A stretch of 64,000 nt of DNA from an uncultured Alphaproteobacteria bacterium (lineage in GTDB: Bacteria > Pseudomonadota > Alphaproteobacteria > HIMB59 > GCA-002718135), in assembly GCA_902600225.1 (NCBI GenBank), contig CACKIH010000002.1, forward strand, positions 13,743 through 77,742, read 5' to 3'. The notes under the pieces are model-generated. The model searched no databases and was not told where the DNA came from. It was given only the letters and a program-made list of their open reading frames with translations. Positions 39,919 to 60,576 of the stretch are shown here, in pieces (within the stretch, counting starts at the first letter, position 1; each line of letters opens with the position of its first letter). Position numbers and translations under genes: made by a program.

Positions 39919-41683
39919 TGTTATTCTTAAAAAATTTGAAACTGGTGATAAATTAAAAAGTTATAAAGAACTTCAAAAAATTTTTAAAAAAAACAAAGGT
40001 AATAATTTATTAAGATATAACCTAGCAGTTATTCAACAAAGTTTAAACATGAATAAAGAGGCTAGAATAAATTATAATTATTTAATAAAAAATGAGAAGA
40101 ATCTGAAAGCAATGATTAATCTTTATAATATGGATATTTCAGAAGCAAATTATTATGAGGCATTTAATACAATAGAAAGTATTTTAAAAATAAAAACAAT
40201 TGAAAACGTAATTAAAGACAAAGCTTTTGTTCTTTATAAATTGAATAGAATTGAAGAAGCAAAAAAAATTTGCATATTTTACCTAAATAAAAATAATAAA
40301 GATTTAGGTTTTCTTACTGTAATAGGTCAGTGCTTATTTCATGAAAGAAAATATGATGATGCAATTAAAATATTTGAAAATATTCTACAAATAGACTCAC
40401 AGAATCTATCAGCATTAAACTCTTTAGCAAGAACACATAATGAAAAAAACGAAAAAGTAAAAGCAGAAGAATACTATCTTAAAGCCTTAAAAATTGACGG
40501 TTCATCTTTTTATTTATTAAATAATATTGCGGGTTTTTATAGAGAGAATGCATCTTATGATAAAGCTATTGATTACTACAAACAAGCTCTTTTAGTAAAT
40601 CCAAATAATGCATATATCTATAACAATTTAGCTAAAATCTATTTTGATTTAAACAAACATGAAAAAGCTATAGAAAATAGTTTTAAAGCTTTAAAAATGA
40701 AAAAAAATGATGGTGATATTCAAAAAACAATTGCCTTCATATATCTCAAAGATCATGATTTTGAAAATGGTTGGAACTACTATGATGGAAGATTAGATAT
40801 TGATGATTTTAAAGAAAAGAATTATTTCATAGAGAAGTTAAACAAAAAATTATACAGATCAAGTAGTCTTAATAATAAAAAAGGTAAATTTCTAATTGTA
40901 CGTGAACAGGGAGTTGGAGATGAAATACTTTATAGTTCTATGTATGAAGATCTTTTAAGTGATTTTGATAATACAATTATAGAGTGTGATCCTCGTCTAT
41001 TAAATTTTTACAAAAGATCATTCCCAAAATATAGAGCAAAATTTGTTAGCCTTGGAACTATTACAGATGATGAAGAAAAGTTTAAAAAAATTGACAATAT
41101 AATTTATGCTGGAAGCCTAGGAAGATATTATCGTAAGAATATTAAAGATTTTAAAAATAATTCTTTTTTAAAAGTAGACGAAAAAAAATTAGAAAAAATA
41201 AAAAGAAAATTGTCAATTTATAAACAAAAATACAAGATTGGATTATCGTGGAAAAGTTTTAGTGATAAATTTGCAATAGATAAATCTCTAAACCTTAAAG
41301 ATTTTAATAATATTTTTAATCTTACTAATTGTGATATCTTTAATTTACAATATGGTATTGCTGAGGATGAAATAAATAGTTTCAATAATACAACTAAAAA
41401 TAAACTACTTAATATAGAAGGTTTGGATTTGTATAATGATTTTGAAGGTATTGCTGCATTATTAAAGTCACTTGATGTTTTTATTACTGTTAGTAACAGT
41501 ACTGCCCATCTTGCAGGAGCATTGGGTGTGAGAACAATTTTGATTAAACCAGAAAATTTTGCTATTTTTCATTACTGGAATCAAAAAACAGATAATACTC
41601 CATGGTATCCTTCAGTTAAACTAATTGATAAAAAAAAGTTTTTAAATGATACTAAATTTTTAAAAAAAATTTTAGGAATTTGA
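39896..41683 (+). CDS. TPR-repeat protein with C-terminal GT9-like domain, paralog 2
   Basis: Same architecture as paralog 1, with FLIVREQGVGDEILYSS, IGLSWKS and LDVFITVSNSTAHLAGALGVRTILI. It overlaps paralog 1 by 23 nt. Confidence 0.6.
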   Translation: MNLISQINVILKKFETGDKLKSYKELQKIFKKNKGNNLLRYNLAVIQQSLNMNKEARINYNYLIKNEKNLKAMINLYNMDISEANYYEAFNTIESILKIKTIENVIKDKAFVLYKLNRIEEAKKICIFYLNKNNKDLGFLTVIGQCLFHERKYDDAIKIFENILQIDSQNLSALNSLARTHNEKNEKVKAEEYYLKALKIDGSSFYLLNNIAGFYRENASYDKAIDYYKQALLVNPNNAYIYNNLAKIYFDLNKHEKAIENSFKALKMKKNDGDIQKTIAFIYLKDHDFENGWNYYDGRLDIDDFKEKNYFIEKLNKKLYRSSSLNNKKGKFLIVREQGVGDEILYSSMYEDLLSDFDNTIIECDPRLLNFYKRSFPKYRAKFVSLGTITDDEEKFKKIDNIIYAGSLGRYYRKNIKDFKNNSFLKVDEKKLEKIKRKLSIYKQKYKIGLSWKSFSDKFAIDKSLNLKDFNNIFNLTNCDIFNLQYGIAEDEINSFNNTTKNKLLNIEGLDLYNDFEGIAALLKSLDVFITVSNSTAHLAGALGVRTILIKPENFAIFHYWNQKTDNTPWYPSVKLIDKKKFLNDTKFLKKILGI

Positions 41684-42373
41684 GTTAAATTTATTAGAAA
41701 GATACTCATCTCTTTCCAATATCCATTCTTTTGCAAATTCAACATCTTGCCATTCAGAAAACCAAGGTCCGCCTCGTGTATAATGAACTGCATATGGTTT
41801 TTTATTATTGTGACCTGAAGTCCAACCTTCTAACCAATTCCATCTTTCATCTAGTATTCCAATTTCACTATCTTGACACCATTTAAATTGATGCAAATAT
41901 GCGCCAGTTTCATTATTTACTTTCTCAATTGTAAGGTTCTTTGTACTTGGATGAGAGCAATTATATAGAATAAAACTAGACCAATTTTTTCTTGGATAAT
42001 TTGTTTGTTTTTGTCCATCCATCTTATGTTTTTCTTTAGGGGTATAGTCATGTTGAACACAATAAGCAGCTTTTGTTTCATCAAGATTGTTTAACAAATT
42101 TGCCACATCTCCTAAAAAAATAAAATCACAATCACAAAAAACTGCCCATCCTTCATAATTCATTAGTTTAGGAACTAAAAATCTGGAATAAGTAAATTCT
42201 GTAGAAGCTAATGGATCGACATTTCTAGTATATAGGTTTTTAGCTATAAGCTCTTCAAGTTTTAAAGACACAACGTTCACTTTAATACTTGATCGCTTTA
42301 AAAGTGAATGTTTGCATACTCTATAAGCAATATCTTCTTTAGAATCATAACCTATAAAGAAATTTAAATTCAT
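41672..42373 (-). CDS. Putative GT-A glycosyltransferase, GT8-like
   Basis: A 233-aa protein with STEFTYSRFLVPKL and the DxD-type FCDCDFIF, then NWSSFILYN and VHYTRGGPWF. This order matches the retaining GT8-type layout. Confidence 0.5.
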   Translation of the reverse strand: MNLNFFIGYDSKEDIAYRVCKHSLLKRSSIKVNVVSLKLEELIAKNLYTRNVDPLASTEFTYSRFLVPKLMNYEGWAVFCDCDFIFLGDVANLLNNLDETKAAYCVQHDYTPKEKHKMDGQKQTNYPRKNWSSFILYNCSHPSTKNLTIEKVNNETGAYLHQFKWCQDSEIGILDERWNWLEGWTSGHNNKKPYAVHYTRGGPWFSEWQDVEFAKEWILERDEYLSNKFNSNS

Positions 42374-46076: not shown

Positions 46077-46085
46077 TTGAGTAAT

Positions 46086-46985
46086 ATGAGTAAACATATT
46101 TTTTGGATAGCCTCATATCCCAAAAGTGGTAATACGTTAATTAGATCAATTCTTTCATCATTATTTTTTTCGGAAAGTGGTATTTTCAGTTTTGATTTAT
46201 TAAAAAAAATAGTGAGTTTTGAAGAACTTAGTAGATTAACTAAATGCTATAATACTAGAGCAGAAAATATTAATACAAAAAATTGGAAAGAAAAAAATAT
46301 TTTAATTTTCCAAAATTTTAGAGATATCCAAAAAAAAAATAATTTAGGTTTTAGAGAAGATTTTGCTTTTTTTAAAACACATTTTAATGGAAAAAATTTT
46401 GATGGTCAGAGGTTTTTAATTAACGATTATTTAAGAGGAATAATTTATATTTATAGAGATCCTAGAGATGTTTGTGTGTCATGGGCAAGGCATTCAAATT
46501 TATCAAAAAATCAAAGTGTAGACTTTATGCTCAATGAATCAGCATGGATTAGATGGTTAGGTAAAGAAAAATTTAAAAATTACAAAAATGATGTACCTGT
46601 TTTTTTATCTAGTTGGGAAAAACATGTTAGATCTTGGATTGATTTAAAACATAATTGTCCATTCTTGTTACTTAATTACGAAGACTTAGTATATCAAAAA
46701 AAAGATACAATAAAAAAAATAATAGATTTTTTTGAAGATAACTTCAAAATTAAAATAAGCAACAAAGAAATAAAAATTAATAATATTCTAGATTCTACTT
46801 CTTTCAATAATTTACAAAAACTAGAAATTAAACAAGGTTTTAATGAAAGTATTAATGAAAATAAATTTTTTGCTGTAGGACAAAAAAATCAATGGAAAAA
46901 TGAATTAGAACAAAATCAAATAAAAATTTTAGAAGATGAATTTGGATTAATGATGAAAAAATTAAAATACAAACTCTATAACTAA
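46086..46985 (+). CDS. Sulfotransferase (Sulfotransfer_1-like, PAPS-dependent)
   Basis: The 5'-PSB is SYPKSGNTLIRS and the 3'-PB is IYRDPRDVCVSWARH. I prefer the ATG at 46086 over the track's TTG at 46077. Confidence 0.8.
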   Translation: MSKHIFWIASYPKSGNTLIRSILSSLFFSESGIFSFDLLKKIVSFEELSRLTKCYNTRAENINTKNWKEKNILIFQNFRDIQKKNNLGFREDFAFFKTHFNGKNFDGQRFLINDYLRGIIYIYRDPRDVCVSWARHSNLSKNQSVDFMLNESAWIRWLGKEKFKNYKNDVPVFLSSWEKHVRSWIDLKHNCPFLLLNYEDLVYQKKDTIKKIIDFFEDNFKIKISNKEIKINNILDSTSFNNLQKLEIKQGFNESINENKFFAVGQKNQWKNELEQNQIKILEDEFGLMMKKLKYKLYN

Positions 46986-47029
46986 TTTAATTCTTGAATT
47001 TTTACATTTTTAGAATTACTCTTAAAAAG

Positions 47030-48955
47030 ATGATGAATATTAAAGACAAATGGATTGCAGAAGCAAAGATTAATAATGAAGATTATATATCACTTTACAA
47101 AAGTTCTATTGAAAATGGTGATGATTTTTGGAACAAACAAGGAGACAGGATAGATTGGTATTCAAAATATACAAAAATTAATAATGTAAAGTATTCGAGT
47201 AAGGATGTAAGTATAAAATGGTATGAAGATGGAAAACTTAATGTTTCATATAATTGTATTGATAGACATGCAAAAAAAAATCCTGATAAAATTGCAATAA
47301 TATGGGAAGGCGATAATCCTGATGATGTAAAAAAAATTACATATAAGGAACTTTTAACTAATGTATCCAAAGCGGCCAATGTTTTAAAAAAAATTGGAAT
47401 AAAAAAAGGTGACAGAGTAACAATATATTTAACCATGATACCTGAATTAGCTTACATAATGCTTGCTTGTGCAAGAATTGGAGCTGTCCACTCTATTATT
47501 TTTGGAGGTTTCTCCGCAGAGTCTATTGCTGGTAGAATTAAAGATTGTAGATCTGAATATATTGTAACCGCTGATGAAGGGGTAAGGGGTGGTAAAACTA
47601 TTCCTTTAAAATTAACAACAGATAAAGCATTAGAAACATGTCCCGATGTTAAGAAGTGTTTAATTGTTAAAAGAACAAATAAAGAAATAGAATTAATAAA
47701 AGATAGAGACGTATACTATGATGATGTTCTTAAAGAAGTTGATGATTTTTGTGAACCAGAAATTTTAAATGCTGAAGATCCATTATTTATTTTATATACA
47801 TCAGGATCAACTGGTAAGCCAAAAGGTGTAATGCATACATCTGGTGGTTATATTGTATATACTTCAATGACTCATGAATATATCTTTAACTATAATGATG
47901 AAGACATATATTGGTGTACGGCAGACATAGGATGGATCACTGGTCATAGTTATATAATTTATGGACCCCTTTCTAATGGAGCAACAACTTTAATGTTTGA
48001 AGGAGTTCCTAATTATCCTGACTTCTCTAGGTTCTGGCAAATAGTCGATAAGCATAAAGTAAATATCTTTTATACAGCTCCTACTGCAATTAGAGCTTTA
48101 ATGAGAGAAGGTGATGATTACGTAACTAAAACTAGCAGATCATCATTAAAACTTTTAGGAACAGTTGGCGAACCAATAAACCCAGAGGCATGGAAGTGGT
48201 ACTTTGAAGTACCAGGTAATTCAAATTGTCCAATTGTTGATACTTGGTGGCAAACTGAAACAGGTGGAATTTTAATATCTCCTCAGACGGGTGCTATAAA
48301 ATTGAAACCTGGTTCAGCTTCAAAGCCATTCTTTGGTATTGAACCATGTATTGTAGATAAAGACGGTAAAGAACTAAAAGGAGAATGTGAAGGAATGTTA
48401 TGTATGAAAAGATCATGGCCTGGTCAAATGAGAACGGTTTATGGTGATCATAAAAGATTCATTGATACATATTTTTCACAATTTGATGGAAAATATTTTA
48501 CTGGCGATGGATGTAAGAGAGATAAAGATGGTTATTATTGGATCACAGGAAGAGTAGACGACGTTATTATTGTTTCTGGTCATAATTTAGGTACAGCAGA
48601 AATAGAAAGTGCTTTTGTTTCTCATAAAGATGTATCTGAAGCAGCGGTAGTAGGCTACCCTCATGATGTTAAAGGTAATGGTTTATATTGTTATGTTTCC
48701 TTAAAGGCGGGTATCAAATCATCTGACGATTTAGAATTAGATTTAAAAAAAACTATTAGAGAAAAAATTGGTCCAATTGCAACTCCTGATTTTATACACA
48801 TTACTGCTGGTTTACCAAAAACTAGGTCAGGAAAGATTATGAGAAGAATTCTAAGAAAGATTGCTTCTAATGATTTTGATAATTTAGGAGACACATCAAC
48901 ACTAGCAGACCCGTCAGTTGTAGATGATTTGATTGAAAATAGAAGAAATAAATAA
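47030..48955 (+). CDS. acs: Acetyl-CoA synthetase
   Basis: Contains [20 protein letters not shown], the [20 protein letters not shown] motifs and [12 protein letters not shown] place the start at ATG 47030. Confidence 0.97.
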
Positions 48956-48958
48956 AAA

Positions 48959-49510
48959 TTATCTAGGCTCCCAATGCTTTAAACATCTTGGCTCGTAAAT
49001 ATTTGCTGCTCCAACTTGCGTTCTTTTACCACCTGATGTTTTTCTGAAAGTTTTAGTAGCTTCCAAACCACAAACATTGCAAAAACCATAAATTTTTACT
49101 ATTTTATCTGATAAACCCAGTAACATTGCAGAAGTTTCCCAAGGCTTTCCTCTTGAATCTTGATCAAGACCGGCACAAACAACATCTATGCCCTTATTCA
49201 AGATTAATTCTACATTGCTTAATGTATCTTTCGTATTCATAAACTGAATTTCATCTAAAAATACAATATCAACTTCACTTTTTTCAAAAATAAATTTAGT
49301 TAATGTTGTTGACCAATCACTCATTGCATAACACTCATGACTCAAATCATTATGTGTAATAATTTTCTCATTAGAATATCTATCATCAATACTTGGTTTA
49401 ATTACGATAATTTTTTTATTCTGATGTTTAGCCCAAAGAATTCTCTTAAGTAATTCACTTGTTTTACCAGCAAACATCGCTCCAACAATCGTCTCAAGAT
49501 TTCCTCGCAT
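48959..49510 (-). CDS. tdk: Thymidine kinase
   Basis: Contains the P-loop GAMFAGKTSELL, FLDEIQF, and a C-terminal Zn ribbon (CNVCG...RC). Confidence 0.9.
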   Translation of the reverse strand: MRGNLETIVGAMFAGKTSELLKRILWAKHQNKKIIVIKPSIDDRYSNEKIITHNDLSHECYAMSDWSTTLTKFIFEKSEVDIVFLDEIQFMNTKDTLSNVELILNKGIDVVCAGLDQDSRGKPWETSAMLLGLSDKIVKIYGFCNVCGLEATKTFRKTSGGKRTQVGAANIYEPRCLKHWEPR

Positions 49511-49579
49511 AACTCAATATATTTTATTTTCATAATTTATTATATAATTATTTTAAATAAATATTTATTTTTTGAAGTA

Positions 49580-50848
49580 ATGATCAAGGGTGTAAAAATT
49601 AGATTTGAAATCCATAATATATTATTTTCAATTTATAAATTGAATAAAACATTAAATTATTCTTCAATTATAAAGCAAATAAATAAACAAAAAAAAGAAG
49701 ATATTGCCTTCTTATATAATGTAACGTTAAATTCAATGAGATTACATTTACATTGTTTAAAAATAATAAATAAATTTATAAAAAAAAAATTAAGAGATCA
49801 AGAAAAGATTATATTGATAAGTGCAATAACTCAAATTGTATTTTTAAACTTTAAGGAATACGCTGTCATAAATTGTTCAGTTGAAATAACAAAAAAACTA
49901 AATTTATATCCTGGACTAATTAATGCAACATTAAAAAAAATAACCAAAGATAAAAATGATTTGAAAAAAATCAAAATTAATTTTTGTGATTTACCTTTAT
50001 GGTTTCAAAAAAAAGCTAGTTTTTTGTCTGACTATGAGAAAAAACAATTTTTAGAAAATTTTCATATGGAGCCAAACATTCACATTGTTTTTAAGGATGA
50101 AGAAAGGTTAAAAAAATTCGAGGCTAAGTTATTTAAAACATCTTTAATATCTGGTTTTTTATTAGATGAAAAAAATTTTCAGAATAGAAATTCTTTTATT
50201 AAGGGTGATTGGTGGGTACAAGATTTTAGCTCCTTTCTTCCATTGTATAATTTTAAAGAAATAAATAAAAGTATGGTATTTCTTGATGCCTGTGCTGCAC
50301 CTGGTGGAAAATCTTTTCAAATTTTATCAAAAAAATTTAATATTATCTTGAACGATAAAAACAAGAATAGAATTAAAACTCTTAAAACTAATTTAGAACG
50401 ACTCAAATTTACTACCAAAATTTTTAATAAAGATTTTATTCAATTTGAAAATAAAAGAAAGTTTGACGTAATTATAATTGATGCTCCTTGTTCGGCTGTA
50501 GGAACAATAAGGAGAAATCCTGAAATATTTTTTAAAAACAAAGGTCCAGATTTTGACAAACTTCTTTCTTTACAAGAAAATATGTTAGAAAAAGCTTCAC
50601 TTTTATTGAATACTGACGGATATATAATTTACATGACTTGCTCTTTTTTAAAAATTGAAACCGTTAATCAAGTTGAAAAGTTCCTTAAACTAAATAAAAA
50701 TTTTATGCTTTCAAATTTTGAATTAAAAGAAAATAAAAAAAATTACTCAAAGTTTATTAAAAATAATTTTATGATAACTATTCCTAATATACTTTTTGAC
50801 TATAAGGTTGATGGATACTTTGCAGCTTTTTTAAAAAAAATAAAATGA
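49580..50848 (+). CDS. rsmB: 16S rRNA m5C methyltransferase RsmB/Sun family
   Basis: Has a NusB-like N-domain and the SAM motifs LDACAAPGGKS, IIDAPCSAVGTIRRNPE and YMTCS. Confidence 0.85.
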   Translation: MIKGVKIRFEIHNILFSIYKLNKTLNYSSIIKQINKQKKEDIAFLYNVTLNSMRLHLHCLKIINKFIKKKLRDQEKIILISAITQIVFLNFKEYAVINCSVEITKKLNLYPGLINATLKKITKDKNDLKKIKINFCDLPLWFQKKASFLSDYEKKQFLENFHMEPNIHIVFKDEERLKKFEAKLFKTSLISGFLLDEKNFQNRNSFIKGDWWVQDFSSFLPLYNFKEINKSMVFLDACAAPGGKSFQILSKKFNIILNDKNKNRIKTLKTNLERLKFTTKIFNKDFIQFENKRKFDVIIIDAPCSAVGTIRRNPEIFFKNKGPDFDKLLSLQENMLEKASLLLNTDGYIIYMTCSFLKIETVNQVEKFLKLNKNFMLSNFELKENKKNYSKFIKNNFMITIPNILFDYKVDGYFAAFLKKIK

Positions 50849-52377
50849 TTTTGATAATAAAAAAAATAGTATTTATATTTATAACTTCTAAATTTAATTC
50901 AAAAAAAAATTTATCTTATTTAGACTTAAACTTTAGAAAAATAGATTTTACAAATCATGATAAAGTAAAGACATTTATTTTTAAAAAAAATTTTTATACT
51001 TTCAAAAATAAGAATATTCATAGTTTTGATTTTTTAAATTTCTCAAATAAACTTGGTGGTAAAATAGGAATAAATTTATCTAAAAAAGCTATCTTTGGTT
51101 GGTATAAATTAAACAAAAATAAGCTTGGCTTTCCTTGGGTAGAAGATTTGTCTTCAAAAAGACTGATAAATCTTTTGTATAACTATGAATATATAAATTC
51201 TGCATCTAAAGAAGATGACAAGAAAAAATTAGATTTTATAATTTATTTTCACATTCAAAGAATTTTATTTGACTTCAACTCAAAAAAAATAACTGAATTT
51301 ACTTCATTTGATTTAATAGCATACTTGTTGTCTTGCTTGCTCCTAAAAAAAATTAATGAAACAGAAATTAATTATATTAAGTTTATTGTTGATAACCAGA
51401 TTGATAAAATCGGTGTGCATAAAAGTTATAATTTCTTAGAACATTCTAAGTTTATAAATAATCTCAATGAAATAAAAAATATATTACTTTTTTTTAAATC
51501 AAAGAAATCAAATGTGTTTGATGAAGTAATTCTTAAAATGTCATCGATATTAAATGAATATTTTCACTTAGATGGTTCACTAGCTTTATTTAACGGTACT
51601 AATAATGTTTATACAATGAATATCTACAAATCATTAAACAAAGAGAGTTACTTAAAAAAACGAGATTTTTCAAATATTAATAATGGAATTGCATTTTACT
51701 CAGATACGAATAAAAAAATTTTTTTTGATGTAGTACAGCCAAATTCTGATATGATAAGTTCTAGCTTGAGTGCTGGAACTCTATCGGTTGAATTAAGCGG
51801 TTTTGGAGAGAAAATTCTTACAAATTGTGGTGCATCAGAAAACTTTGGGAAGAATCCTGAATATTTGAGATACAGTGCAGCCCATTCAACTATTATTTTA
51901 CAAAATACTAATATAAGTGAAATAAAGGAAGACAATCCACATGTAAAATTTCCACAATCAGTGGTCTTTAGAAAAGAAGCAAATGATCAAGAAGAAATAT
52001 TTGAAGGATCACATAATGGATATTTAAAAAAGTTTAATAAAATAATAAAAAGAAGATTAGTTATTTATAAAAATAAAAATAAATTAGAGGGCGAAGATAG
52101 CTTTATTTCATACAAAAATCAGAATGCTCGAATGATTTACCATATTAGATTTCACTTAGCAAATGAAATGGTCTTAAATTTTACAAATAATAAAAAAAAT
52201 ATAATTTTAAAAACAAAAAAGAACAATATATGGTTATTTAAAAGTAATACGGAACTTATAATAGAAGATAGTATATCAGTTGATAATAATATTACAAAGC
52301 CTACTAAACAAATTGTGATTAAAGGTGTATTGTTAAATAAAAAAATTATAGAGAAATGGTCCTTAGAAAAAATCTAA
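50845..52377 (+). CDS. Hypothetical protein, heparinase II/III-like family candidate
   Basis: A 510-aa protein located between rsmB and purH. From memory, many alphaproteobacteria carry a heparinase II/III-like ORF at this position. I cannot verify a motif-level match by eye. Confidence 0.45.
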   Translation: MILIIKKIVFIFITSKFNSKKNLSYLDLNFRKIDFTNHDKVKTFIFKKNFYTFKNKNIHSFDFLNFSNKLGGKIGINLSKKAIFGWYKLNKNKLGFPWVEDLSSKRLINLLYNYEYINSASKEDDKKKLDFIIYFHIQRILFDFNSKKITEFTSFDLIAYLLSCLLLKKINETEINYIKFIVDNQIDKIGVHKSYNFLEHSKFINNLNEIKNILLFFKSKKSNVFDEVILKMSSILNEYFHLDGSLALFNGTNNVYTMNIYKSLNKESYLKKRDFSNINNGIAFYSDTNKKIFFDVVQPNSDMISSSLSAGTLSVELSGFGEKILTNCGASENFGKNPEYLRYSAAHSTIILQNTNISEIKEDNPHVKFPQSVVFRKEANDQEEIFEGSHNGYLKKFNKIIKRRLVIYKNKNKLEGEDSFISYKNQNARMIYHIRFHLANEMVLNFTNNKKNIILKTKKNNIWLFKSNTELIIEDSISVDNNITKPTKQIVIKGVLLNKKIIEKWSLEKI

Positions 52378-52961
52378 AAAAAAAATTTGCTTTAATATCT
52401 GTATTTGAAAAAAAAAATTTAAAGTATCTCTGTTCAAACTTAAATAAATTTAATTATAGTCTTATGTCTAGTGGATCTACTGGAAATAAAATTCGCGAAT
52501 TAGGATTTAAATGTAAAGATATTTCAAAAATAACAAATTCTAAAGAGATGTTTGGCGGTAGAGTTAAAACATTAAATCCATTAATATACAGTTCATTACT
52601 TTACATAAGAGATGATAAAATTCATAAAAAACAGTTTCAATTATTAAACATACCTGAAATAGATATTGTTGTTGTTAACTTATATCCATTTAAAAGTTAT
52701 TTAAAAAAAAATAATAATGATCAACTTATTGAAATGATTGATATTGGTGGACCAAGTTTATTAAGAGCTGCCGGAAAAAACTTTAAATACATAACTCCAA
52801 TAGCTGATATAATGGACTATAAAAAATTAGTAACAAATTTAAGTAAAAATAAAGGAAAAACTGACATTATTTTTAGAAAACAAATGGCTCTTAAAGTTTT
52901 TAAACAAACAGCACAATATGACAAAATTATTTATAATTGGCTAAATGAAAAGCAAAGATAG
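52356..52961 (+). CDS. purH: PurH N-terminal domain (IMP cyclohydrolase, MGS-like) as separate ORF
   Basis: Contains GGRVKTL, VVNLYPF, IDIGGPSLLRAAGKN and ALKVFKQTAQYD. The ORF ends WLNEKQR* at the position of the interdomain linker. Confidence 0.8.
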   Translation: MVLRKNLKKKFALISVFEKKNLKYLCSNLNKFNYSLMSSGSTGNKIRELGFKCKDISKITNSKEMFGGRVKTLNPLIYSSLLYIRDDKIHKKQFQLLNIPEIDIVVVNLYPFKSYLKKNNNDQLIEMIDIGGPSLLRAAGKNFKYITPIADIMDYKKLVTNLSKNKGKTDIIFRKQMALKVFKQTAQYDKIIYNWLNEKQR

Positions 52962-53862
52962 TAAAATAAAATTAAGATATGGAGAAAATCCAAATCAAAG
53001 AAGCTATTTGATGAGTAATAAAAAAAATTCAATTTTTACCTATCAAATTAGTGGGAAACAAATAAGTTATAACAATTTAATTGATATTGATAGCGGACTA
53101 AAATGTTTAAAAGAATTTCCTGAGCCTACTTCCATAATTCTTAAACATACTAATCCTTGTGGTATAGCTTCAGCGAAAAACATAGAGATGGCCTTTAATA
53201 GATCTTATGAAAGTGACCCTAAAAGTGCTTTTGGAGGAATAATTTTTCTAAATAGAAGAGTGACTTATAAACTTGCAATGAAAATATACAAAAATTTTTA
53301 CGAGATGATAGTTGCATTAGATTTCAATCAAGATGCACTAAAAATTTTAAAAAAGAAGAAGAATTTAATTTTATTAAAAATACCCAATATAAAGAAAACA
53401 ACTCTTGAATATAGATCTACTTTATTTGGTGATCTTTATCAAACAACAGATTTAGATACAATTAATAGAAAATTTTTAACTTTAGTTTCAGAAAAGAATG
53501 GTTCAACTAAATCAATTAATGATTTAATTTTTTCACTGAAAGTTGCAAAACACTTAAAATCAAATGCTATTGTTTTATCAAGAAACAAACAAACTCTAGG
53601 TTTAGGTCATGGTCATACAAATAGAGTAGATGCATTACATTATGCAATTAAAAATATGAATAAATATTTTAAAAAAGGTACTTTTGTTTGTGCTTCAGAC
53701 GGTTTTTTTCCTTTTGTAGACAGTATAAACCTACTCAATAGGAATGGATGCAATGCTGTAGCTCAACCTGGTGGCTCAATAAATGATAAACTAATAATTT
53801 CTTTTTCAATAAAAAATAAATTACCATTGTATTTCATAAAAAACAGACTCTTTAAACATTGA
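52945..53862 (+). CDS. purH: PurH C-terminal domain (AICAR formyltransferase) as separate ORF
   Basis: Contains LRYGENPNQ, SYNNLIDIDS, KHTNPCGIA, DPKSAFGGII, SDGFFPF, AQPGGSIND and the terminal RLFKH. Its own ATG lies at 52945, in a different frame from the upstream ORF. Confidence 0.85.
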   Translation: MKSKDSKIKLRYGENPNQRSYLMSNKKNSIFTYQISGKQISYNNLIDIDSGLKCLKEFPEPTSIILKHTNPCGIASAKNIEMAFNRSYESDPKSAFGGIIFLNRRVTYKLAMKIYKNFYEMIVALDFNQDALKILKKKKNLILLKIPNIKKTTLEYRSTLFGDLYQTTDLDTINRKFLTLVSEKNGSTKSINDLIFSLKVAKHLKSNAIVLSRNKQTLGLGHGHTNRVDALHYAIKNMNKYFKKGTFVCASDGFFPFVDSINLLNRNGCNAVAQPGGSINDKLIISFSIKNKLPLYFIKNRLFKH

Positions 53863-54018
53863 ATAAAAAAAATAAAATTTCAAAGTATTTAAAAGTTTTA
53901 ATAAAAGATCATCCTAAAATTTTATCAGGTAGAAAAAACTTTGATCAACATAATTATAGAATTATAAAAACAATAGAAATAATTAGGAAATATTTTAAAT
54001 TGAAAGAATAGATCAAAA

Positions 54019-54783
54019 TTAAGAAGAGATATTATTAAAAATATTTTCCCAAGCTTCTCCAGTTTCTATCTCTTTGAGAGTCCACTGACCATATGCTAAA
54101 TTATTAAAAATTTTATAATCTATGATAGGATTTTCTATGTTCTGTATTTTACCTATATTACATAAGGTTTGATCAGTAAAGTATGAAGGGATTCCGTTAC
54201 ACATTGCCATAAAACCAGCTGTTGATTGCAAACTAACAAATGCCCACGCATCTTTTAATAATAAACTCAATGGTTTTTTTGCTAATTTATTATGTACTAC
54301 AATTCTTCTATCAGAGTATTTTTTTACTAATTGTGTTGTCTCTTCTGTCCACTTAGGCACGTTATACATTTTTTTCATAGTTTCAGATGGTTCAGAAAGG
54401 ATTATATAGCTGCCTGTTTTTTTTTGATCATGTATCTTTAAATTTAGTTTACTTAATCTATCACTTGGAAAATTACCCCTACCATCGTGTATAAAGTTAT
54501 TATAAACAATTCTAAAATAACCATCCATATTTTTAACTTTAGTCGATTTACTTTCAAATATTCTTTCTGATTGATTAAAATAACCATGGTCCATATAATA
54601 AAAATTTTTAACTTTATTGATTACTTCAAGAGTTCCTCTTAACACTCCATAAGTTGCAATAGTTTTATTAAATTCCTTAAAATTATCTACATGACACAAA
54701 GGAGAATCAGAACCTTTGGCAAAATTATAACATAGAGTTCTATTCATTATATGGTCTGTATAAATTACTATGGGTTTTTCCAT
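54019..54783 (-). CDS. Hypothetical protein (254 aa), island orphan
   Basis: Long ORF with no signal peptide or TM. It has alternating beta-alpha character (IVIYTD..., YIILSEPSE..., RIVVHNK..., AFVSLQSTAGFMAMCNGIP) suggesting a Rossmann-like transferase fold. That reading is speculative. Confidence 0.5.
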   Translation of the reverse strand: MEKPIVIYTDHIMNRTLCYNFAKGSDSPLCHVDNFKEFNKTIATYGVLRGTLEVINKVKNFYYMDHGYFNQSERIFESKSTKVKNMDGYFRIVYNNFIHDGRGNFPSDRLSKLNLKIHDQKKTGSYIILSEPSETMKKMYNVPKWTEETTQLVKKYSDRRIVVHNKLAKKPLSLLLKDAWAFVSLQSTAGFMAMCNGIPSYFTDQTLCNIGKIQNIENPIIDYKIFNNLAYGQWTLKEIETGEAWENIFNNISS

Positions 54784-54844
54784 TATATTGAGTGTATAAA
54801 CTAATAAGTTTTTTATAATAAAGCGAAACGCTTAATAACGGTAT

Positions 54845-56380
54845 CTATTTCTTTTTAAAAATTATTTTTACTTCTGAATTAGGTTGAATTTCACTAAGTG
54901 TGTCTTCTTTTTTTTTATATGAAAACTTAATAGAATTTTTTTTATTACTAAAATTAAATATTCTCAATTCTGTTTTTTCATCTGACAATTCACGAATCAA
55001 CGGCAAACACCCTGCTGTTATAGTAGCTGATTTAAATTTTATTAAATAATCAGATTTTCCAAGGTTTTCATTACTACCAATAATTAACTTTGTATAACAT
55101 CCTGTAACCGGTCCAATTCCCCAATTTCTACCATGTCCAGATATTATAGAGCTAAAATGCTTTCCAGAGTCTGAGTGTTCACAGCCAAGACGGAGTATGG
55201 ATGAAGCAATTTTAATTTTTTTAGCAGCAGTTCTAAAAGCCCTTTCTGCGTATTCAATTTTACCAGTAATATTATACAGCAATGAGAAATATGAAGTTGA
55301 GGGTTCTGTTAATTCTTTAGGCTCAAAAGCGTTAAAGAAATACCAATAAATCATGTCTTTTCTATTTCCTAAACCAGGTCTTCTAATTGTTTGGTTCTGT
55401 GGAAATGTTAACATGATTTCTGAATCGTCATAAGGTTTTAAATTAGATATAGAATCTAAAACTAACTTATCAAAATAATAATCAGAAAAAGCATTTCTAT
55501 AATAAGAAATAATTGCTCCCACATTATCAGAATATGGATGCTTAATGATAGGGATTAATTTTTTGATTATTTTTTTTGAGGCTTCCAAAAAAATATTATC
55601 ATTTGTTATATGATAAAGCTCGCCAAATATATATATAAAACCTGATGTAATTAAATTTTCAATTCCTGAAAAGGGATCATCTTTGAAATGATGGTGGTTT
55701 GATGCTAAAAATTTTTCTTCTGGGTTTATCATATCTTTTGAAAAAAACTCATCCCATTCACAATTCCAAGCAACGGGTATGGTTTCTTTTGCAATAATGA
55801 TTTTCTCAGCAAATTTTTTACTATAATTAATTGACCAGTCTAAATATTTTTGATCTGAAGTTATATTCCATGCCAGTAAAGATATATGAACAAATCTTAA
55901 ATGATCAGCAGTATTAAATTTGTAATTGTCTCTTTCGCTTATACCATCGCTACCAAAATACCAGCTGTTAAAGTTTTTAAGTGAATAATTATACCAGTCT
56001 TCAGTTTCTTTATCCCAATTTCCAATTAATTTAGAAACATTTATAATTAATTCTTTTGCTTTTACATCTTCAGGAAAGAGATCTATGTATCTAGGTAAAA
56101 AACCTAAAAAAAGTTCTGATCCATGATGAACATCCTCCATTTTAAAATATCCTTTGTGGAGATTTTTTTCTGCCCAGTTGATCAATTTTTTTCCCATATA
56201 AAATAAAAAATTTTTATTAGATTCATTTGGATCTATTAAATAATCATGGAAAAGAGATATACAATAATTTGCATTATCACCTTGATAAATTGAATTAGAA
56301 AAACTGTCTAACGCTTCTTTATTAATAAGTTTTTTGATTTCTTGATTTATTGTTAATGCTGATTCAAATAAAATTTTCAT
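54845..56380 (-). CDS. Hypothetical protein (511 aa), island orphan
   Basis: Long ORF that overlaps the upstream sulfotransferase gene by 4 nt. The first ~400 aa are rich in aromatics (W/Y/F/H), followed by a ~100-aa beta-rich tail. I recognise no family. Confidence 0.5.
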   Translation of the reverse strand: MKILFESALTINQEIKKLINKEALDSFSNSIYQGDNANYCISLFHDYLIDPNESNKNFLFYMGKKLINWAEKNLHKGYFKMEDVHHGSELFLGFLPRYIDLFPEDVKAKELIINVSKLIGNWDKETEDWYNYSLKNFNSWYFGSDGISERDNYKFNTADHLRFVHISLLAWNITSDQKYLDWSINYSKKFAEKIIIAKETIPVAWNCEWDEFFSKDMINPEEKFLASNHHHFKDDPFSGIENLITSGFIYIFGELYHITNDNIFLEASKKIIKKLIPIIKHPYSDNVGAIISYYRNAFSDYYFDKLVLDSISNLKPYDDSEIMLTFPQNQTIRRPGLGNRKDMIYWYFFNAFEPKELTEPSTSYFSLLYNITGKIEYAERAFRTAAKKIKIASSILRLGCEHSDSGKHFSSIISGHGRNWGIGPVTGCYTKLIIGSNENLGKSDYLIKFKSATITAGCLPLIRELSDEKTELRIFNFSNKKNSIKFSYKKKEDTLSEIQPNSEVKIIFKKK

Positions 56381-57003
56381 TTTTGTATTAATTTAAAGTC
56401 TTTTGCATATATTTTTTCAATTTTATCAATCTGCAAGCCAGTCAGTTTTACTTTAATATCACTTCCACCAGTTTGGATTTTGGGAAAGATAACTTTTCTT
56501 GAAAAAAAATCGTTAACCTGTTCAGCAAAAAAACTAATCTCTTCTACTGTAGACCAAAAAGTATAATAACTTAAATCTTCACCCAAAAAATACACCTGCG
56601 GTAAAAAATGTCTATTCTCAAAATTATTATTTTCAAGCTTTTCAAGTATCATATCAACTGAATGATCTTTAAATTGAATATCGCGATGATAAAGTATTCT
56701 GTTTTTATATGCAGAAATAAACCTTTTAATAGGGTCTCTTACAATACAACATTTAATATCTACATTAATTCTTTCAAAAGGCTGTTTGGATGGAATTATT
56801 CCTATAATATTTTGTTTGCTCCCATATTGCTCCGGAGTTTGTTCTATCTGGGGTATTTCATCTCCTAAAAAAAGATAGTGTTTATCAATGTTTAAATGTT
56901 TAGCAAAAAACATTTTAGCAGAAGTGTTAGCGTTTTTAGGACATGGGTAGTAGATTAGTTTTTTATTTGTAATCTTATTAGTAAATACAGCATATTTTGA
57001 CAT
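56377..57003 (-). CDS. Sulfotransferase (Sulfotransfer_2/carbohydrate-type-like)
   Basis: The 5'-PSB-like motif is YYPCPKNANTSAKMFF and the 3'-PB-like motif is CIVRDPIKRFISAYKNR. Length is 208 aa. Confidence 0.65.
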   Translation of the reverse strand: MSKYAVFTNKITNKKLIYYPCPKNANTSAKMFFAKHLNIDKHYLFLGDEIPQIEQTPEQYGSKQNIIGIIPSKQPFERINVDIKCCIVRDPIKRFISAYKNRILYHRDIQFKDHSVDMILEKLENNNFENRHFLPQVYFLGEDLSYYTFWSTVEEISFFAEQVNDFFSRKVIFPKIQTGGSDIKVKLTGLQIDKIEKIYAKDFKLIQK

Positions 57004-57055
57004 TTTCTATTTACTAAAAAAATTTAAGATATATTTTCTTCTTAATAAATAAATC

Positions 57056-57652
57056 ATGTCTAATCCTAATCTTTTCTTCTCTACACCTGTTTGGGTTTCT
57101 AATATAAATAATTATAAAGAAACTAATGAAAAAATATATCATTACATTAAAGATTTATATAGTGAAGATAACAAAGGAATCATTCGAAGCAATGTTAAAG
57201 GCTGGCACTCCAACAATTTTAATTTAGAAGATGAAAATGTAGTTGAATTTATTAATTTGATTTCTCCAAATATTAACAATGTTTTAAATGATATGAATTG
57301 GGATATAACTAAACAAAGAGCAAGGATGTCAGCTATGTGGGCAATCATTAATATTGGCGGAGCTTCCAATTCTAGACATCATCATGGAAATTGCGACATA
57401 AGTGGAGCATATTATGTAAGAGCACCTAAAAATTGTGGTGAGATTGTTTTTTATGATCCAAGACCCGCCCCAGTATACTTTCATCCATTATCAACAAAAC
57501 CAAACAGTTTAAATGCTATGCAGAATTCAGTAAATCCTGTGGAAGGTGGTCTAGTTATCTTTCCTAGTTATTTAGATCATTCAGTGAACCCAAATCTCAG
57601 TAATCAAGAGAGAATTGTAATAAGTTTTAATATTAATTTAGTTAGGAAATAA
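57056..57652 (+). CDS. 2OG-Fe(II) oxygenase superfamily protein (TIGR02466/PF13759-like)
   Basis: Contains FSTPVWVSNI, KGWHSNNF, SNSRHHHGNCDISGAYYV, LVIFPSYLDHSVNPN and RIVISFNI. This pattern is typical of the small marine/phage 2OG oxygenase family. Confidence 0.7.
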   Translation: MSNPNLFFSTPVWVSNINNYKETNEKIYHYIKDLYSEDNKGIIRSNVKGWHSNNFNLEDENVVEFINLISPNINNVLNDMNWDITKQRARMSAMWAIINIGGASNSRHHHGNCDISGAYYVRAPKNCGEIVFYDPRPAPVYFHPLSTKPNSLNAMQNSVNPVEGGLVIFPSYLDHSVNPNLSNQERIVISFNINLVRK

Positions 57653-57655
57653 ATT

Positions 57656-58495
57656 TTATAATTTTACGAACAATTTTTTTATATCCTGTTCTTTATATAA
57701 TTTGTCATCTGTTTTGTAATATGGAGATACTATGCATATGTTTTTATTATACTTATCATCCTTGTTAATTTTAAAATTGTTTTTAAATTCAGTAATTTTT
57801 CTGTAAATTATAAAATCATAATAATAATATTGATTAATTAAATTTATATCTTCTTTTTTGGGTGAATAAAAAAAATTATATTTATGTTCTTGAAACTTAG
57901 AATATAAAATTGATGGAAATCCAAATAAACTAAGTATTTCTGACAAAAACTGATCCCAATTTTCAAGTGTATAGATTGAATCAAATGACTTAGTGTTGTT
58001 AATAGCTTCTAAACAGACATTATCTACAATTTCTTTTTTTTCATTTAAAAAACCAGAAAAGTGTCTTGTTATCAAATTATCCCTATTCTTTCTAACTTCT
58101 TCATTTATAAATATCTGAAAAGGATATTTTTCTGGTGTTGTGTTTAATCTAAAAACCATAAATTTATAATGTGAAATTACTCTGCTTATTGGTTCTCTAA
58201 CAACAGAACATTTGTATATATTTTTTAAATTATTACAAAAATCATAATTTAAATGGCCTGAGATAAAATACTTTTTTGAATAATCAATTTCGTTTTGGCT
58301 TAATTTATTTTTTTTTATTTCCTTACTATTTTTAAATCTTTTGAAATTATAATTTTTTAAAATTGAAAAAACTTTTACAAAAATATGGTCAATAGTTGTG
58401 CCTCCACATTTTGGTATATGCATAAAGTATATGGATTTATCTAAATTATTTTTAGTATTAATTTTGCTGGGAACAAATTTAAGTTCTATTTTCAT
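57656..58495 (-). CDS. Sulfotransferase (Sulfotransfer_2/3-like)
   Basis: The 5'-PSB is FMHIPKCGGTTIDHIF and the 3'-PB is SVVREPISRVISHYKF. Length is 279 aa. Confidence 0.7.
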   Translation of the reverse strand: MKIELKFVPSKINTKNNLDKSIYFMHIPKCGGTTIDHIFVKVFSILKNYNFKRFKNSKEIKKNKLSQNEIDYSKKYFISGHLNYDFCNNLKNIYKCSVVREPISRVISHYKFMVFRLNTTPEKYPFQIFINEEVRKNRDNLITRHFSGFLNEKKEIVDNVCLEAINNTKSFDSIYTLENWDQFLSEILSLFGFPSILYSKFQEHKYNFFYSPKKEDINLINQYYYYDFIIYRKITEFKNNFKINKDDKYNKNICIVSPYYKTDDKLYKEQDIKKLFVKL

Positions 58496-58584
58496 GATGT
58501 CAGTATGACTAATAACAAATCTAAGTTTAATATAGCATATTGAGATGTTGCTTTAATGTCACGCAATATTTTTTAGAGAAAAGA

Positions 58585-58621
58585 TGGAGCAGGCTAAGAA
58601 GTTCGGGCCATCGACTTCAAC
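58585..58621 (-). other. Decayed copy of the 3' half of tRNA-Gly(GCC) (att-like scar / pseudo-tRNA fragment)
   Basis: I aligned tggagcaggctaagaagttcgggccatcgacttcaac to tggagcgggcgaagggattcgaaccctcgacttcaac (60502-60538) by hand. They match at 29 of 37 positions in the same orientation. The copy includes the CCA end and stops at the anticodon stem. Confidence 0.65.
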
Positions 58622-58745
58622 TATGTAATGCTTACAAACATTAAAGGATAAGCAAAGTTTTAGGATAATATATCTTTTATTAGACCAAAAATATTGAATT
58701 ATTTTTTATTGATAGCATGTTAATAATGAATAAAAGAAAGTTCTA

Positions 58746-60368
58746 ATGAATTATAAAGATCTAATTAAATATGGAATTAATTTAGCACAAAATGGAAAGC
58801 TTATAGAGGCTGAGAATAATTTTAAGATAGCTATTGAAAAAGATTCAGGTCTTACTGATTCATATATTAATTTGGCAAATGTATATATAATGCAGAGGAA
58901 AATTGAAGAGGCCATTAATTTATTAAAGACCTATTTAATTAATATATCTTTTAATCAAAATATCATTGATCATATTTGGAAAATTAGCCAAAATTTTAAT
59001 AGAGAAGAAAAGTTCTTTGAAATAATTAATTCTTATGAGGATTCAAAAAATCTAAATAAAAAAGAATTAGCTTACATATATTATATACATGGAAGATATT
59101 ATGCTAAATTAAATGACATTGAATTGTCAATTAAATATTTTAAAAAATCTATATTTTTTGATGAACTATTCACTGATAGTTACATCAATCTTTTAGACTG
59201 GTTAGAAAGAATAAATGAAATTTCGCAAGCAAACTTATATTTAAATAAGTTTAATAATATAGTAAAAAAAACTGATTATAAAATAAAGTTTTTTGAAGCA
59301 TTATTATTGTCAAGAGGAAAAAAATTTAAAGCATCTGAAAATATTCTAAATAAATATAAATTAGAAAAATATTTCGAAAAAGATAAATACTATTTCATTA
59401 AACTATTAAATCTTAAATCAAAAAATAATGAAAGGTTAAAAAATTTTTCAATAGCTTATAATTCTATTGTGAAAAGAAACTTATTTTTATCTAGTTTAGA
59501 AGAAAATCAAAAAATTGATAGGGGTGATATTGATCAAACAATACAAAATTATAAAGAAGTTTACTCAAAAGAAAATAAACATGTTGATATAAATAAATTA
59601 AAAATAGGTAAAGAAATTGACCTGACTTTTTTAATTGGATTTCCTAGATCAGGTACTACTTTACTAGATACTATATTACGCACTCATTCAAAAACACTTG
59701 TTTTAGAGGAAAAACTTTATCTTGAAAACACAAGAAATTATTACTTTACTTCTAAAAATAATAAACTTGATGCGATTAAAAACATTTCATTAAAAGAAAT
59801 AATAAATTTGCGCAAATATTATTTTGATCAAATAAACATTGATGATAAAAATATAACAACAGTAATTGATAAACTACCTCTTACAATTACAGAATTGGGA
59901 TTTGTAAAAAAAATTTTTCCAGATGCTAAAATAATTCTGGCATTAAGACATCCATGTGATGTGGTCATAAGCTGTTTTTTTAGCTCTTTCAAAATGAATA
60001 GGGCAATGATTAATTTTTTGAGTATTAAAAACACAGTAGATTTTTATAATAAAGTATTAGATCTATTTGAATTTTATGAGAACAAGTTAAATCTCGAAAT
60101 TATAAAAATAAAATATGAAGATATTGTCTTTGATTTTGAAAATGAAACAAAAAAATTATTTAAATTTTTAAATCTTGACTATGAGAGTAGTATAAATAAA
60201 TTTTATGAAACTGCTAAAAGTAGAAAAATGATATCAACACCCAGTTACTCACAAGTAACTAATCCTATTTATTCAAGCTCTATTGATAGATGGAAAAATT
60301 ATGAATCTTTAGTCAAAATTGAAAAACCTTTAAGAAAATGGATAAAGAGACTGAATTATTTAAACTGA
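58746..60368 (+). CDS. TPR-repeat protein with C-terminal sulfotransferase domain
   Basis: The N-terminal ~280 aa are TPR-like helical repeats. The C-terminal part carries the 5'-PSB LIGFPRSGTTLLDTIL and the 3'-PB LALRHPCDVVISCF. Confidence 0.75.
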   Translation: MNYKDLIKYGINLAQNGKLIEAENNFKIAIEKDSGLTDSYINLANVYIMQRKIEEAINLLKTYLINISFNQNIIDHIWKISQNFNREEKFFEIINSYEDSKNLNKKELAYIYYIHGRYYAKLNDIELSIKYFKKSIFFDELFTDSYINLLDWLERINEISQANLYLNKFNNIVKKTDYKIKFFEALLLSRGKKFKASENILNKYKLEKYFEKDKYYFIKLLNLKSKNNERLKNFSIAYNSIVKRNLFLSSLEENQKIDRGDIDQTIQNYKEVYSKENKHVDINKLKIGKEIDLTFLIGFPRSGTTLLDTILRTHSKTLVLEEKLYLENTRNYYFTSKNNKLDAIKNISLKEIINLRKYYFDQINIDDKNITTVIDKLPLTITELGFVKKIFPDAKIILALRHPCDVVISCFFSSFKMNRAMINFLSIKNTVDFYNKVLDLFEFYENKLNLEIIKIKYEDIVFDFENETKKLFKFLNLDYESSINKFYETAKSRKMISTPSYSQVTNPIYSSSIDRWKNYESLVKIEKPLRKWIKRLNYLN

Positions 60369-60501: not shown

Positions 60502-60576
60502 TGGAGCGGGCGAAGGGATTCGAACCCTCGACTTCAACCTTGGCAAGGTTGCGCTCTACCCCTGAGCTACGCCCGC
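60502..60576 (-). tRNA. tRNA-Gly (anticodon GCC), CCA encoded
   Basis: I folded the cloverleaf by hand. The acceptor stem is GCGGGCG/CGCCCGC, the D arm GCTC-AGGGGTA-GAGC, the anticodon arm CAACC-TTGCCAA-GGTTG and the T arm GAGGG-TTCGAAT-CCCTT, with 3' TCCA. Total length is 75 nt. Confidence 0.95.

Follow-up and report, generated by a model that had tools for sequence, protein, structure and literature searches.

The 64-kb stretch of contig CACKIH010000002.1 analysed here (hereafter the window) is AT-rich, with a GC content of 27.2%, and carries four genes predicted to encode sulfotransferases that use 3′-phosphoadenosine 5′-phosphosulfate (PAPS) as sulfate donor. The original prediction had noticed four open reading frames (ORFs) with PAPS-binding motifs within 14 kb, in a lineage that it took to be SAR11 and that was reported to lack assimilatory sulfate reduction, and had asked where the PAPS would come from. 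All four ORFs were confirmed at their coordinates by the ORF listing and a Pfam scan of the window; each scores above the curated Pfam cut-off of its family (22 bits for Sulfotransfer_1, 22 for Sulfotransfer_2 and 27 for Sulfotransfer_3), and both nucleotide-binding motifs are legible in each. The genes, and the motifs of the first of them, are as follows:

46086-46985, plus strand: ST1, Sulfotransfer_1 (PF00685), 104.5 bits against a cut-off of 22
46116-46136, plus strand: 5′-phosphosulfate-binding loop of ST1, YPKSGNT
46455-46481, plus strand: 3′-phosphate-binding motif of ST1, RDPRDVCVS
56377-57003, minus strand: ST2a, 208 amino acids (aa), Sulfotransfer_2 (PF03567), 41.5 bits against a cut-off of 22
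57656-58495, minus strand: ST2b, 279 aa, Sulfotransfer_2 (PF03567), 34.5 bits against a cut-off of 22
58746-60368, plus strand: TPR-ST3, N-terminal tetratricopeptide repeats (TPR) and C-terminal Sulfotransfer_3 (PF13469), 104.1 bits against a cut-off of 27

The 5′-phosphosulfate loop and the 3′-phosphate motif read CPKNANTS and RDPIKRFIS in ST2a, IPKCGGTT and REPISRVIS in ST2b, and FPRSGTT and RHPCDVVIS in TPR-ST3; by profile score, loop and 3′-phosphate motif alike, all four proteins belong to the PAPS-sulfotransferase superfamily. The catalytic pair of ST1 was taken from an alignment, and the candidate catalytic bases of the other three were read by eye only. In the Pfam scan, the four proteins matched only PAPS-type sulfotransferase and TPR domains, and none matched the beta-propeller of arylsulfate sulfotransferases (ASST). 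Because all four carry P-loop motifs of the PAPS type and not the ASST fold, an aryl sulfate donor, which had been offered as an alternative, is unlikely; their sequences indicate that the four enzymes are very probably PAPS-dependent. That the window encodes four functional PAPS-dependent O-sulfotransferases of three different families is a more tentative proposition, plausible though not quite probable. The count of four in 14 kb stands, but they do not form a single unit: one conserved, core-like gene, ST1, lies apart from the other three, which are located in a variable island of 6.5 kb, and the arrangement is neither chance clustering nor one operon.

ST1 and the lineage of the window

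ST1 begins with an ATG at 46086 (an in-frame TTG lies upstream at 46077), and the public copy on record, which is 100% identical, is the 299-aa ATG form. Its family has 883 detectable members, including homologues named Pelagibacteraceae at 71% and 53% identity. The gene is flanked by an EVE-domain gene and acs, and the order EVE domain, ST1, acs, tdk, rsmB, heparinase-like gene, purH is also found in four further contigs (L001-L004). An alignment of 42 sequences, with a lowest identity of 43%, revealed as invariant the PKSG of the loop, K97-T-H99, R124-D-P-R-D-x-x-x-S132 and a C-terminal GxxxQW; K97-x-H99 corresponds to the Lys/His catalytic pair of SULTs. The check on PAPS-contacting residues that had been proposed earlier was run for this protein and found them invariant throughout the alignment, which implies selection on the gene for nucleotide binding. 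Among solved structures, cytosolic SULTs and the glycopeptide sulfotransferases TEG12 and StaL come closest. ST1 is a conserved, syntenic, housekeeping-like enzyme, the acceptor of which is possibly a small molecule.

As far as sequence comparison indicates, the assignment of the window to SAR11 holds at the level of the family Pelagibacteraceae, as had been supposed; the window has no rRNA gene for a closer placement. Cluster mates at 90% identity or more bear that family name, as do the ST1 homologues mentioned above, and gene order is shared. In particular, the heparinase-II/III-like protein and a 254-aa protein of the island fall into the same 90% clusters as MDC3083510.1 and MDC3083513.1 (Pelagibacteraceae bacterium), the cluster of the 254-aa protein having 204 members, one of which is named Pelagibacteraceae. 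The gene order of the window is common to single-cell assemblies at NCBI (L001 and L163), which we take to be GORG single-cell amplified genomes, and to Tara contigs. The housekeeping genes of the window include dapF, ftsY, pgk, dxs, acnA, ccm genes, argG, acs, tdk, rsmB, purH, blh and crtY.

The variable island between purH and tRNA-Gly

The remaining three sulfotransferase genes, ST2a, ST2b and TPR-ST3, lie in an island of 6.5 kb that extends from purH to a tRNA-Gly gene and also has the following features:

54019-54783, minus strand: 254-aa protein, first island gene after purH, without a Pfam or NCBIfam match
54845-56380, minus strand: 511-aa protein with an (alpha/alpha)6 toroid and a beta-sandwich, predicted to be carbohydrate-active
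57056-57652, plus strand: 2-oxoglutarate (2OG)-Fe(II) oxygenase, 2OG-FeII_Oxy_5 at 85 bits (Pfam) and TIGR02466 at 122.6 bits (NCBIfam)
57655-58736: strain-specific insertion of 1,082 bp relative to Tara contig L165, comprising ST2b and a non-coding spacer of about 240 bp
60502-60576, minus strand: tRNA-Gly(GCC), which bounds the island distally in this genome (ARAGORN and Rfam)

Close relatives (86-90% amino-acid identity) retain the 254-aa protein, the 511-aa protein, ST2a, the 2OG oxygenase and TPR-ST3. The 254-aa protein is kept at 66-89% identity in contigs L001 and L163-L165, in all of which the oxygenase is conserved as well; copies of ST2a with 88-89% identity occupy the same position in L163-L165, and a full-length copy of TPR-ST3 with 87% identity is present in L165. 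The other cargo of the relatives' islands varies, with FkbM-type methyltransferases in L163-L165 and a continuation of the L165 island into family 2 glycosyltransferases (GT2), an IspD-like nucleotidyltransferase, a radical-SAM enzyme and a CofD-GT2 fusion.

ST2b forms a singleton cluster at 90% identity and has no tblastn match in L001 or L163-L165. The breakpoints of the insertion that bears it were placed by blastn at 57654/58737 of the window and 7036/7071 of L165, 34 bp of L165 being replaced; the spacer beside ST2b contains a locally GC-richer stretch and has no Rfam match. The GC content of ST2b (0.208) is the lowest in the region, and that of TPR-ST3 is 0.217. A single-sequence AlphaFold model of ST2b, with a predicted local distance difference test (pLDDT) score of 34, was unusable. 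Neither ST2a nor ST2b has close relatives in IMG/VR, and a likeness of ST2a to phage sulfotransferases, seen by eye, was rejected, tblastn being not significant. TPR-ST3 matches TPST1/2 over residues 285-517 in a sequence search of the PDB.

Sulfotransferases have been reported among the genes of SAR11 hypervariable regions (HVRs), with HVR4 and SAR11_0312 as instances (Wilhelm 2007), in the universal SAR11 HVR ('Pelagibacter, resolved') and in Red Sea genomes, so their presence in variable regions of this lineage is not new. The present site is a small separate one, with purH on one side and tRNA-Gly/blh on the other, and not the rRNA-flanked HVR2; it is not described in the SAR11 HVR literature examined. 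At its proximal side, purH consists of two ORFs that overlap by 17 nt, one for the MGS/IMP-cyclohydrolase part (52356-52961, 201 aa) and one for the AICAR-transformylase part (52945-53862, 305 aa). The same split is found in L001, L163 and L165 and is therefore a conserved trait rather than a sequencing artefact.

The stop of ST2a and the start of the 511-aa ORF overlap by 4 nt, a pairing that relatives preserve. Neither Pfam nor NCBIfam has a model that matches the 511-aa protein, the family of which comprises about 195 representatives. An AlphaFold (AF2) model built from a 40-sequence alignment (pLDDT 91.9) displays an (alpha/alpha)6 toroid followed by a C-terminal beta-sandwich. The best Foldseek matches of the model, with template modelling (TM) scores of 0.4-0.5, are GH47 (mannosidases), GH88 (unsaturated glucuronyl hydrolases), AGE-type epimerases and GH127, all of which are carbohydrate enzymes, and some relatives of the protein give weak matches to GH127 or glucuronyl C5-epimerase. 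The predicted fold is a confident one with only remote likeness to known glycoside hydrolases and epimerases. Taken together with the glycosyltransferases and methyltransferases of the sister islands, it makes a surface-glycan decoration island the most economical reading, and cell-surface glycans are most likely the acceptors of ST2a, ST2b and TPR-ST3. TPR-ST3 may instead have a protein or peptide acceptor, because its catalytic domain is closest to protein-tyrosine sulfotransferases.

Elsewhere in the window, two tandem paralogous TPR proteins of 601 and 595 aa are encoded at 38113-39918 and 39896-41683, their C-terminal domains of about 300 aa being unannotated. They adjoin a weakly GT8-like gene (41672-42373) in an arrangement that is kept in L001, and these genes may represent another glycosylation module.

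Source of PAPS and rival explanations

The window contains no sat, cysDN, cysC or cysQ, and the islands of the close relatives examined have no sat, cysDN or cysC. In the 64-kb window, tblastn with E. coli CysC, CysN, CysD and CysQ as queries gave nothing better than E = 0.45, and sat was not found on reading all ORF translations, in agreement with the earlier observation that no gene for ATP sulfurylase or adenosine 5′-phosphosulfate (APS) kinase is present there. The view that SAR11 lacks assimilatory sulfate reduction is also shared by the literature: the pathway was not found in 135 complete Pelagibacter genomes ('Pelagibacter, resolved'), and sat was found in one of seven SAR11 genomes, in HVR2 of HTCC9565, with APS kinase being mentioned (Grote 2012). 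To ask for the origin of PAPS was legitimate, but the paradox was overstated, because sulfate reduction and sulfate activation are separate and AprBA can make APS without sat, a route that had been overlooked. A lack of sulfate reduction (cysH/cysIJ) is compatible with sulfate activation, and core AprBA can give SAR11 APS from sulfite and AMP, bypassing ATP sulfurylase.

To date, several inventories have addressed the genes concerned. The aprBA genes are present in SAR11, and their product is believed to convert sulfite oxidatively to APS (Smith 2016, PMC5069961). Table 3 of that study counts one cysC each in HTCC1002, HTCC1062, HTCC7211, HTCC9565 and HIMB5, subclade Ia strains that are exactly those with aprA, and also records cysN in HTCC7211 and both cysD and cysN in HIMB59; no cysC locus tag is given in its supplements. 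According to Tucker 2025 (PMC12636525), aprAB belongs to the core of Pelagibacteraceae and to the genes under the strongest purifying selection, xsc and suyAB, which yield sulfite, are core or nearly so, and cysQ is core (supplementary file 2). The adjacency of AprA and AprB is kept in at least 120 of 135 complete genomes. Within what these sources offer, published SAR11 inventories conflict on cysC and agree on aprAB and cysQ as core, and APS kinase is the weak, uncertain link of PAPS supply.

On the reading that we favour, PAPS would be made by genes outside the window. Organosulfonate catabolism and catabolism linked to dimethylsulfoniopropionate (DMSP) would supply sulfite, which core AprM-AprBA, running oxidatively, would convert with AMP to APS, ATP sulfurylase not being needed; an APS kinase would phosphorylate APS to PAPS, and CysQ would recycle the product 3′-phosphoadenosine 5′-phosphate (PAP). 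ST2a, ST2b and TPR-ST3 would sulfate surface glycans and thereby diversify the surface that phages and grazers meet. If APS is made by AprBA, the sulfur of the sulfate esters would derive from organosulfur compounds and not from seawater sulfate. The whole chain, from sulfite through AprBA and APS kinase to sulfated surface glycans, is put forward as a working proposal to which we attach somewhat less than even confidence.

Several observations weigh against this proposal. No solved-structure relative of ST2a or ST2b was found by sequence search. PAP also arises from phosphopantetheinyl transfer, and CysQ is therefore no proof of PAPS turnover. The text of Smith 2016 (PMC5069961) calls cysDNCHIJ absent despite the cysC count in its Table 3. 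The accessible part of the Tucker 2025 core-gene sheet (PMC12636525) holds no K00860/COG0529 cluster or CysC motif, although some of its sequences are corrupted, so that the absence of cysC there is not proof; a singleton CysC-like protein in the same part is annotated as CDP-amidate kinase. A SAR11 cysC was also sought in viral (IMG/VR) and metagenome contigs with an AT-biased DNA pattern for the DPKGLYK motif, and none was demonstrable among the more than 130 CysC loci listed from these scans. A cluster of an adenylyltransferase gene resembling nicotinamide mononucleotide adenylyltransferase (NMNAT), aprM, aprB, aprA, a metallophosphoesterase gene, a small ORF and cysC (L127, L161 and L162) was considered as SAR11 and rejected, its probable source being low-GC SAR116: its AprB and the SAR11 core AprB share only 71% identity, an adjoining arginase has one 90% cluster mate named SAR116, and several proteins of the cluster, among them AprA and AprB, have identical copies on a 2.45 Mb contig. 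The existence of this cluster in a related low-GC marine alphaproteobacterial lineage nevertheless makes a link from AprBA to CysC biologically plausible.

Additional observations were made on the loci recovered by this search. Among the matches listed, the metagenome contigs with CysC appear Flavobacteria-, Campylobacterota-, archaeal- and eukaryote/giant-virus-like by gene content alone. Four IMG/VR contigs (L006, L011, L012 and L013) combine DUF2061, CysC, a small Sulfotransfer_2-like gene and an NMNAT-like gene; they look like phage or giant-virus DNA by gene content, which suggests virus-encoded PAPS supply and sulfation. The CpdA/SpdA-like metallophosphoesterase between aprA and cysC (L162:8781-9563, with homologues in L127 and L161) is a possible hydrolase of APS, PAPS or PAP. 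A divergent APS-kinase-like family (P0121/P0125) was rejected as SAR11 after a scan of genome contigs led to metagenome-assembled genomes (MAGs) of Gammaproteobacteria. Members of this subfamily (L142-L149 and L070; for example, L142:7726-10528) have the motifs WFTGMSGAGKS and NLIGYS, are devoid of the ENIRR arginines, and may act on a substrate other than APS. Their genes always follow those for a pyruvate-kinase-barrel-like protein and a 430-aa Sulfotransfer_3-like protein, and are located in polysaccharide islands of AT-rich marine gammaproteobacterial MAGs.

The NMNAT-like adenylyltransferases form a family of 129-163 aa with the motifs GR[WYF]QPxHxGH, YGRGVGY and ISATK[IV]R, which scores far under all NCBIfam cut-offs. 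Its genes include L096:2104-3036(-), L162:5169-5558(+) and L011:2705-3157(+), and others are present in L006, L009, L013, L021, L047, L048, L082, L083, L102, L122, L127, L141 and L161. Among the 133 CysC-bearing loci listed, the gene is fused to APS kinase once (L096) and is no more than about 1.2 kb away from it in 13 others, and in three further loci it heads the aprM-aprBA-cysC cluster; its settings comprise marine phages, Flavobacteria-like contigs and that cluster. The family is a candidate for a non-canonical APS-forming or APS-handling enzyme.

Other explanations of the sulfotransferases differ in the donor that they assume. PAPS may come by the ordinary route, from sat (or cysDN) and cysC located elsewhere in the genome of this strain, for example in HVR2, and kept solely for sulfation. 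Such an arrangement would be in line with the sat of HTCC9565 and the mention of an APS kinase (Grote 2012), with cysN in HTCC7211 and cysD plus cysN in HIMB59 (Smith 2016, PMC5069961 Table 3), and with other marine lineages, in which cysC, often with cysDN or sat, adjoins sulfotransferases in polysaccharide islands. However, sat occurs in only that one of the seven genomes of Grote 2012, assimilatory sulfate reduction was found in none of 135 complete Pelagibacter genomes, and neither the window nor the island variants of the relatives have such genes; the ordinary route is regarded as unlikely. Alternatively, no PAPS would be made, and the donor would be APS itself, another sulfo-nucleotide, or activated sulfate from a non-canonical enzyme. 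The accessible part of the core-gene sheet of Tucker 2025 (PMC12636525), which has aprAB without cysC, agrees with this, as does the occurrence in marine genomes of uncharacterised adenylyltransferase and kinase families tied to APS metabolism, and the binding residues of ST1 are invariant family-wide, so that some donor must exist. Yet all four enzymes keep the Arg/Ser motif that binds the 3′-phosphate, the very group that sets PAPS apart from APS, and no donor-related gene is present in the island; we consider such a donor quite improbable. To our knowledge, no member of these sulfotransferase families depends on APS.

It is also conceivable that the three island genes are recently acquired cargo, silent or non-functional for want of a donor. 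The low GC contents of ST2b and TPR-ST3 and the position of the singleton ST2b on a strain-specific insertion point in this direction, whereas every ORF is intact, no motif is incomplete, several relatives retain ST2a and TPR-ST3 at 87-89% identity, and ST1 is conserved family-wide. Streamlined SAR11 genomes have few pseudogenes, and silent cargo appears very improbable here. We know of no outlet for the APS that AprBA makes in SAR11 without sat, and the sulfotransferases might be part of one. In that case, sulfur from DMSP, taurine or 2,3-dihydroxypropane-1-sulfonate (DHPS) would be exported as sulfate esters, at the surface or secreted, with PAPS obtained through a patchily annotated cysC or a non-canonical enzyme, for which the NMNAT-like family is a candidate; this suggestion is speculative and decidedly unlikely.

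Returning to the proposed sulfation of surface glycans with PAPS made through AprBA and APS kinase, its interest lies in the fact that SAR11 is the most abundant heterotroph of the ocean and has an unusual sulfur metabolism. If the enzymes are active, SAR11 must maintain a PAPS pool despite lacking ATP sulfurylase, and the sulfate esters would probably carry the sulfur of dissolved organosulfur compounds. If the proposal is true, the core and strongly selected AprBA would gain a biosynthetic role beyond sulfite detoxification, and sulfation would join the repertoire of surface variation that shapes interactions with phages and grazers. Should an ordinary cysC, with or without sat, be present in the full genome, the finding would be one of routine annotation.

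Relation to known sulfotransferase systems

The four genes are further examples of known families in a largely known context. ST1 resembles the cytosolic SULTs, TEG12 and StaL (PF00685) in its fold family, its PKSG 5′-phosphosulfate-binding loop and its Lys-x-His pair, and shares with SULT-type enzymes the RDPxDxxxS 3′-phosphate-binding motif and a C-terminal motif like GxxGxWK. It differs from the solved structures in its low identity (E about 1e-9), with only the C-terminal two thirds aligning, and in its setting: TEG12 and StaL belong to an antibiotic cluster, whereas ST1 is a syntenic chromosomal gene of a streamlined heterotroph. ST2a and ST2b are similar to the carbohydrate sulfotransferases of PF03567 in their PKxxxT(T/S) and R(D/E)PxxRxxS motifs but are, at 208 and 279 aa, much shorter, and the translational coupling of ST2a to a carbohydrate-enzyme-like protein is in keeping with that family. 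The C-terminal domain of TPR-ST3 is like TPST1/2, with about 230 residues aligning and a PRSGTT loop typical of TPSTs, whereas its 290-aa TPR N-terminus and its setting in a glycan-decoration island are unlike them; the bacterial RaxST is presumably another point of likeness.

With regard to PAPS supply, the aprM-aprBA-cysC cluster offers a way to PAPS that is independent of sat, as is the route proposed for SAR11, but it is probably of SAR116 origin and known here outside SAR11 only. The island as a whole resembles the surface-polysaccharide content of SAR11 hypervariable regions in its low GC and its strain-variable glycosyltransferases, methyltransferases and sulfotransferases (Wilhelm 2007; 'Pelagibacter, resolved').

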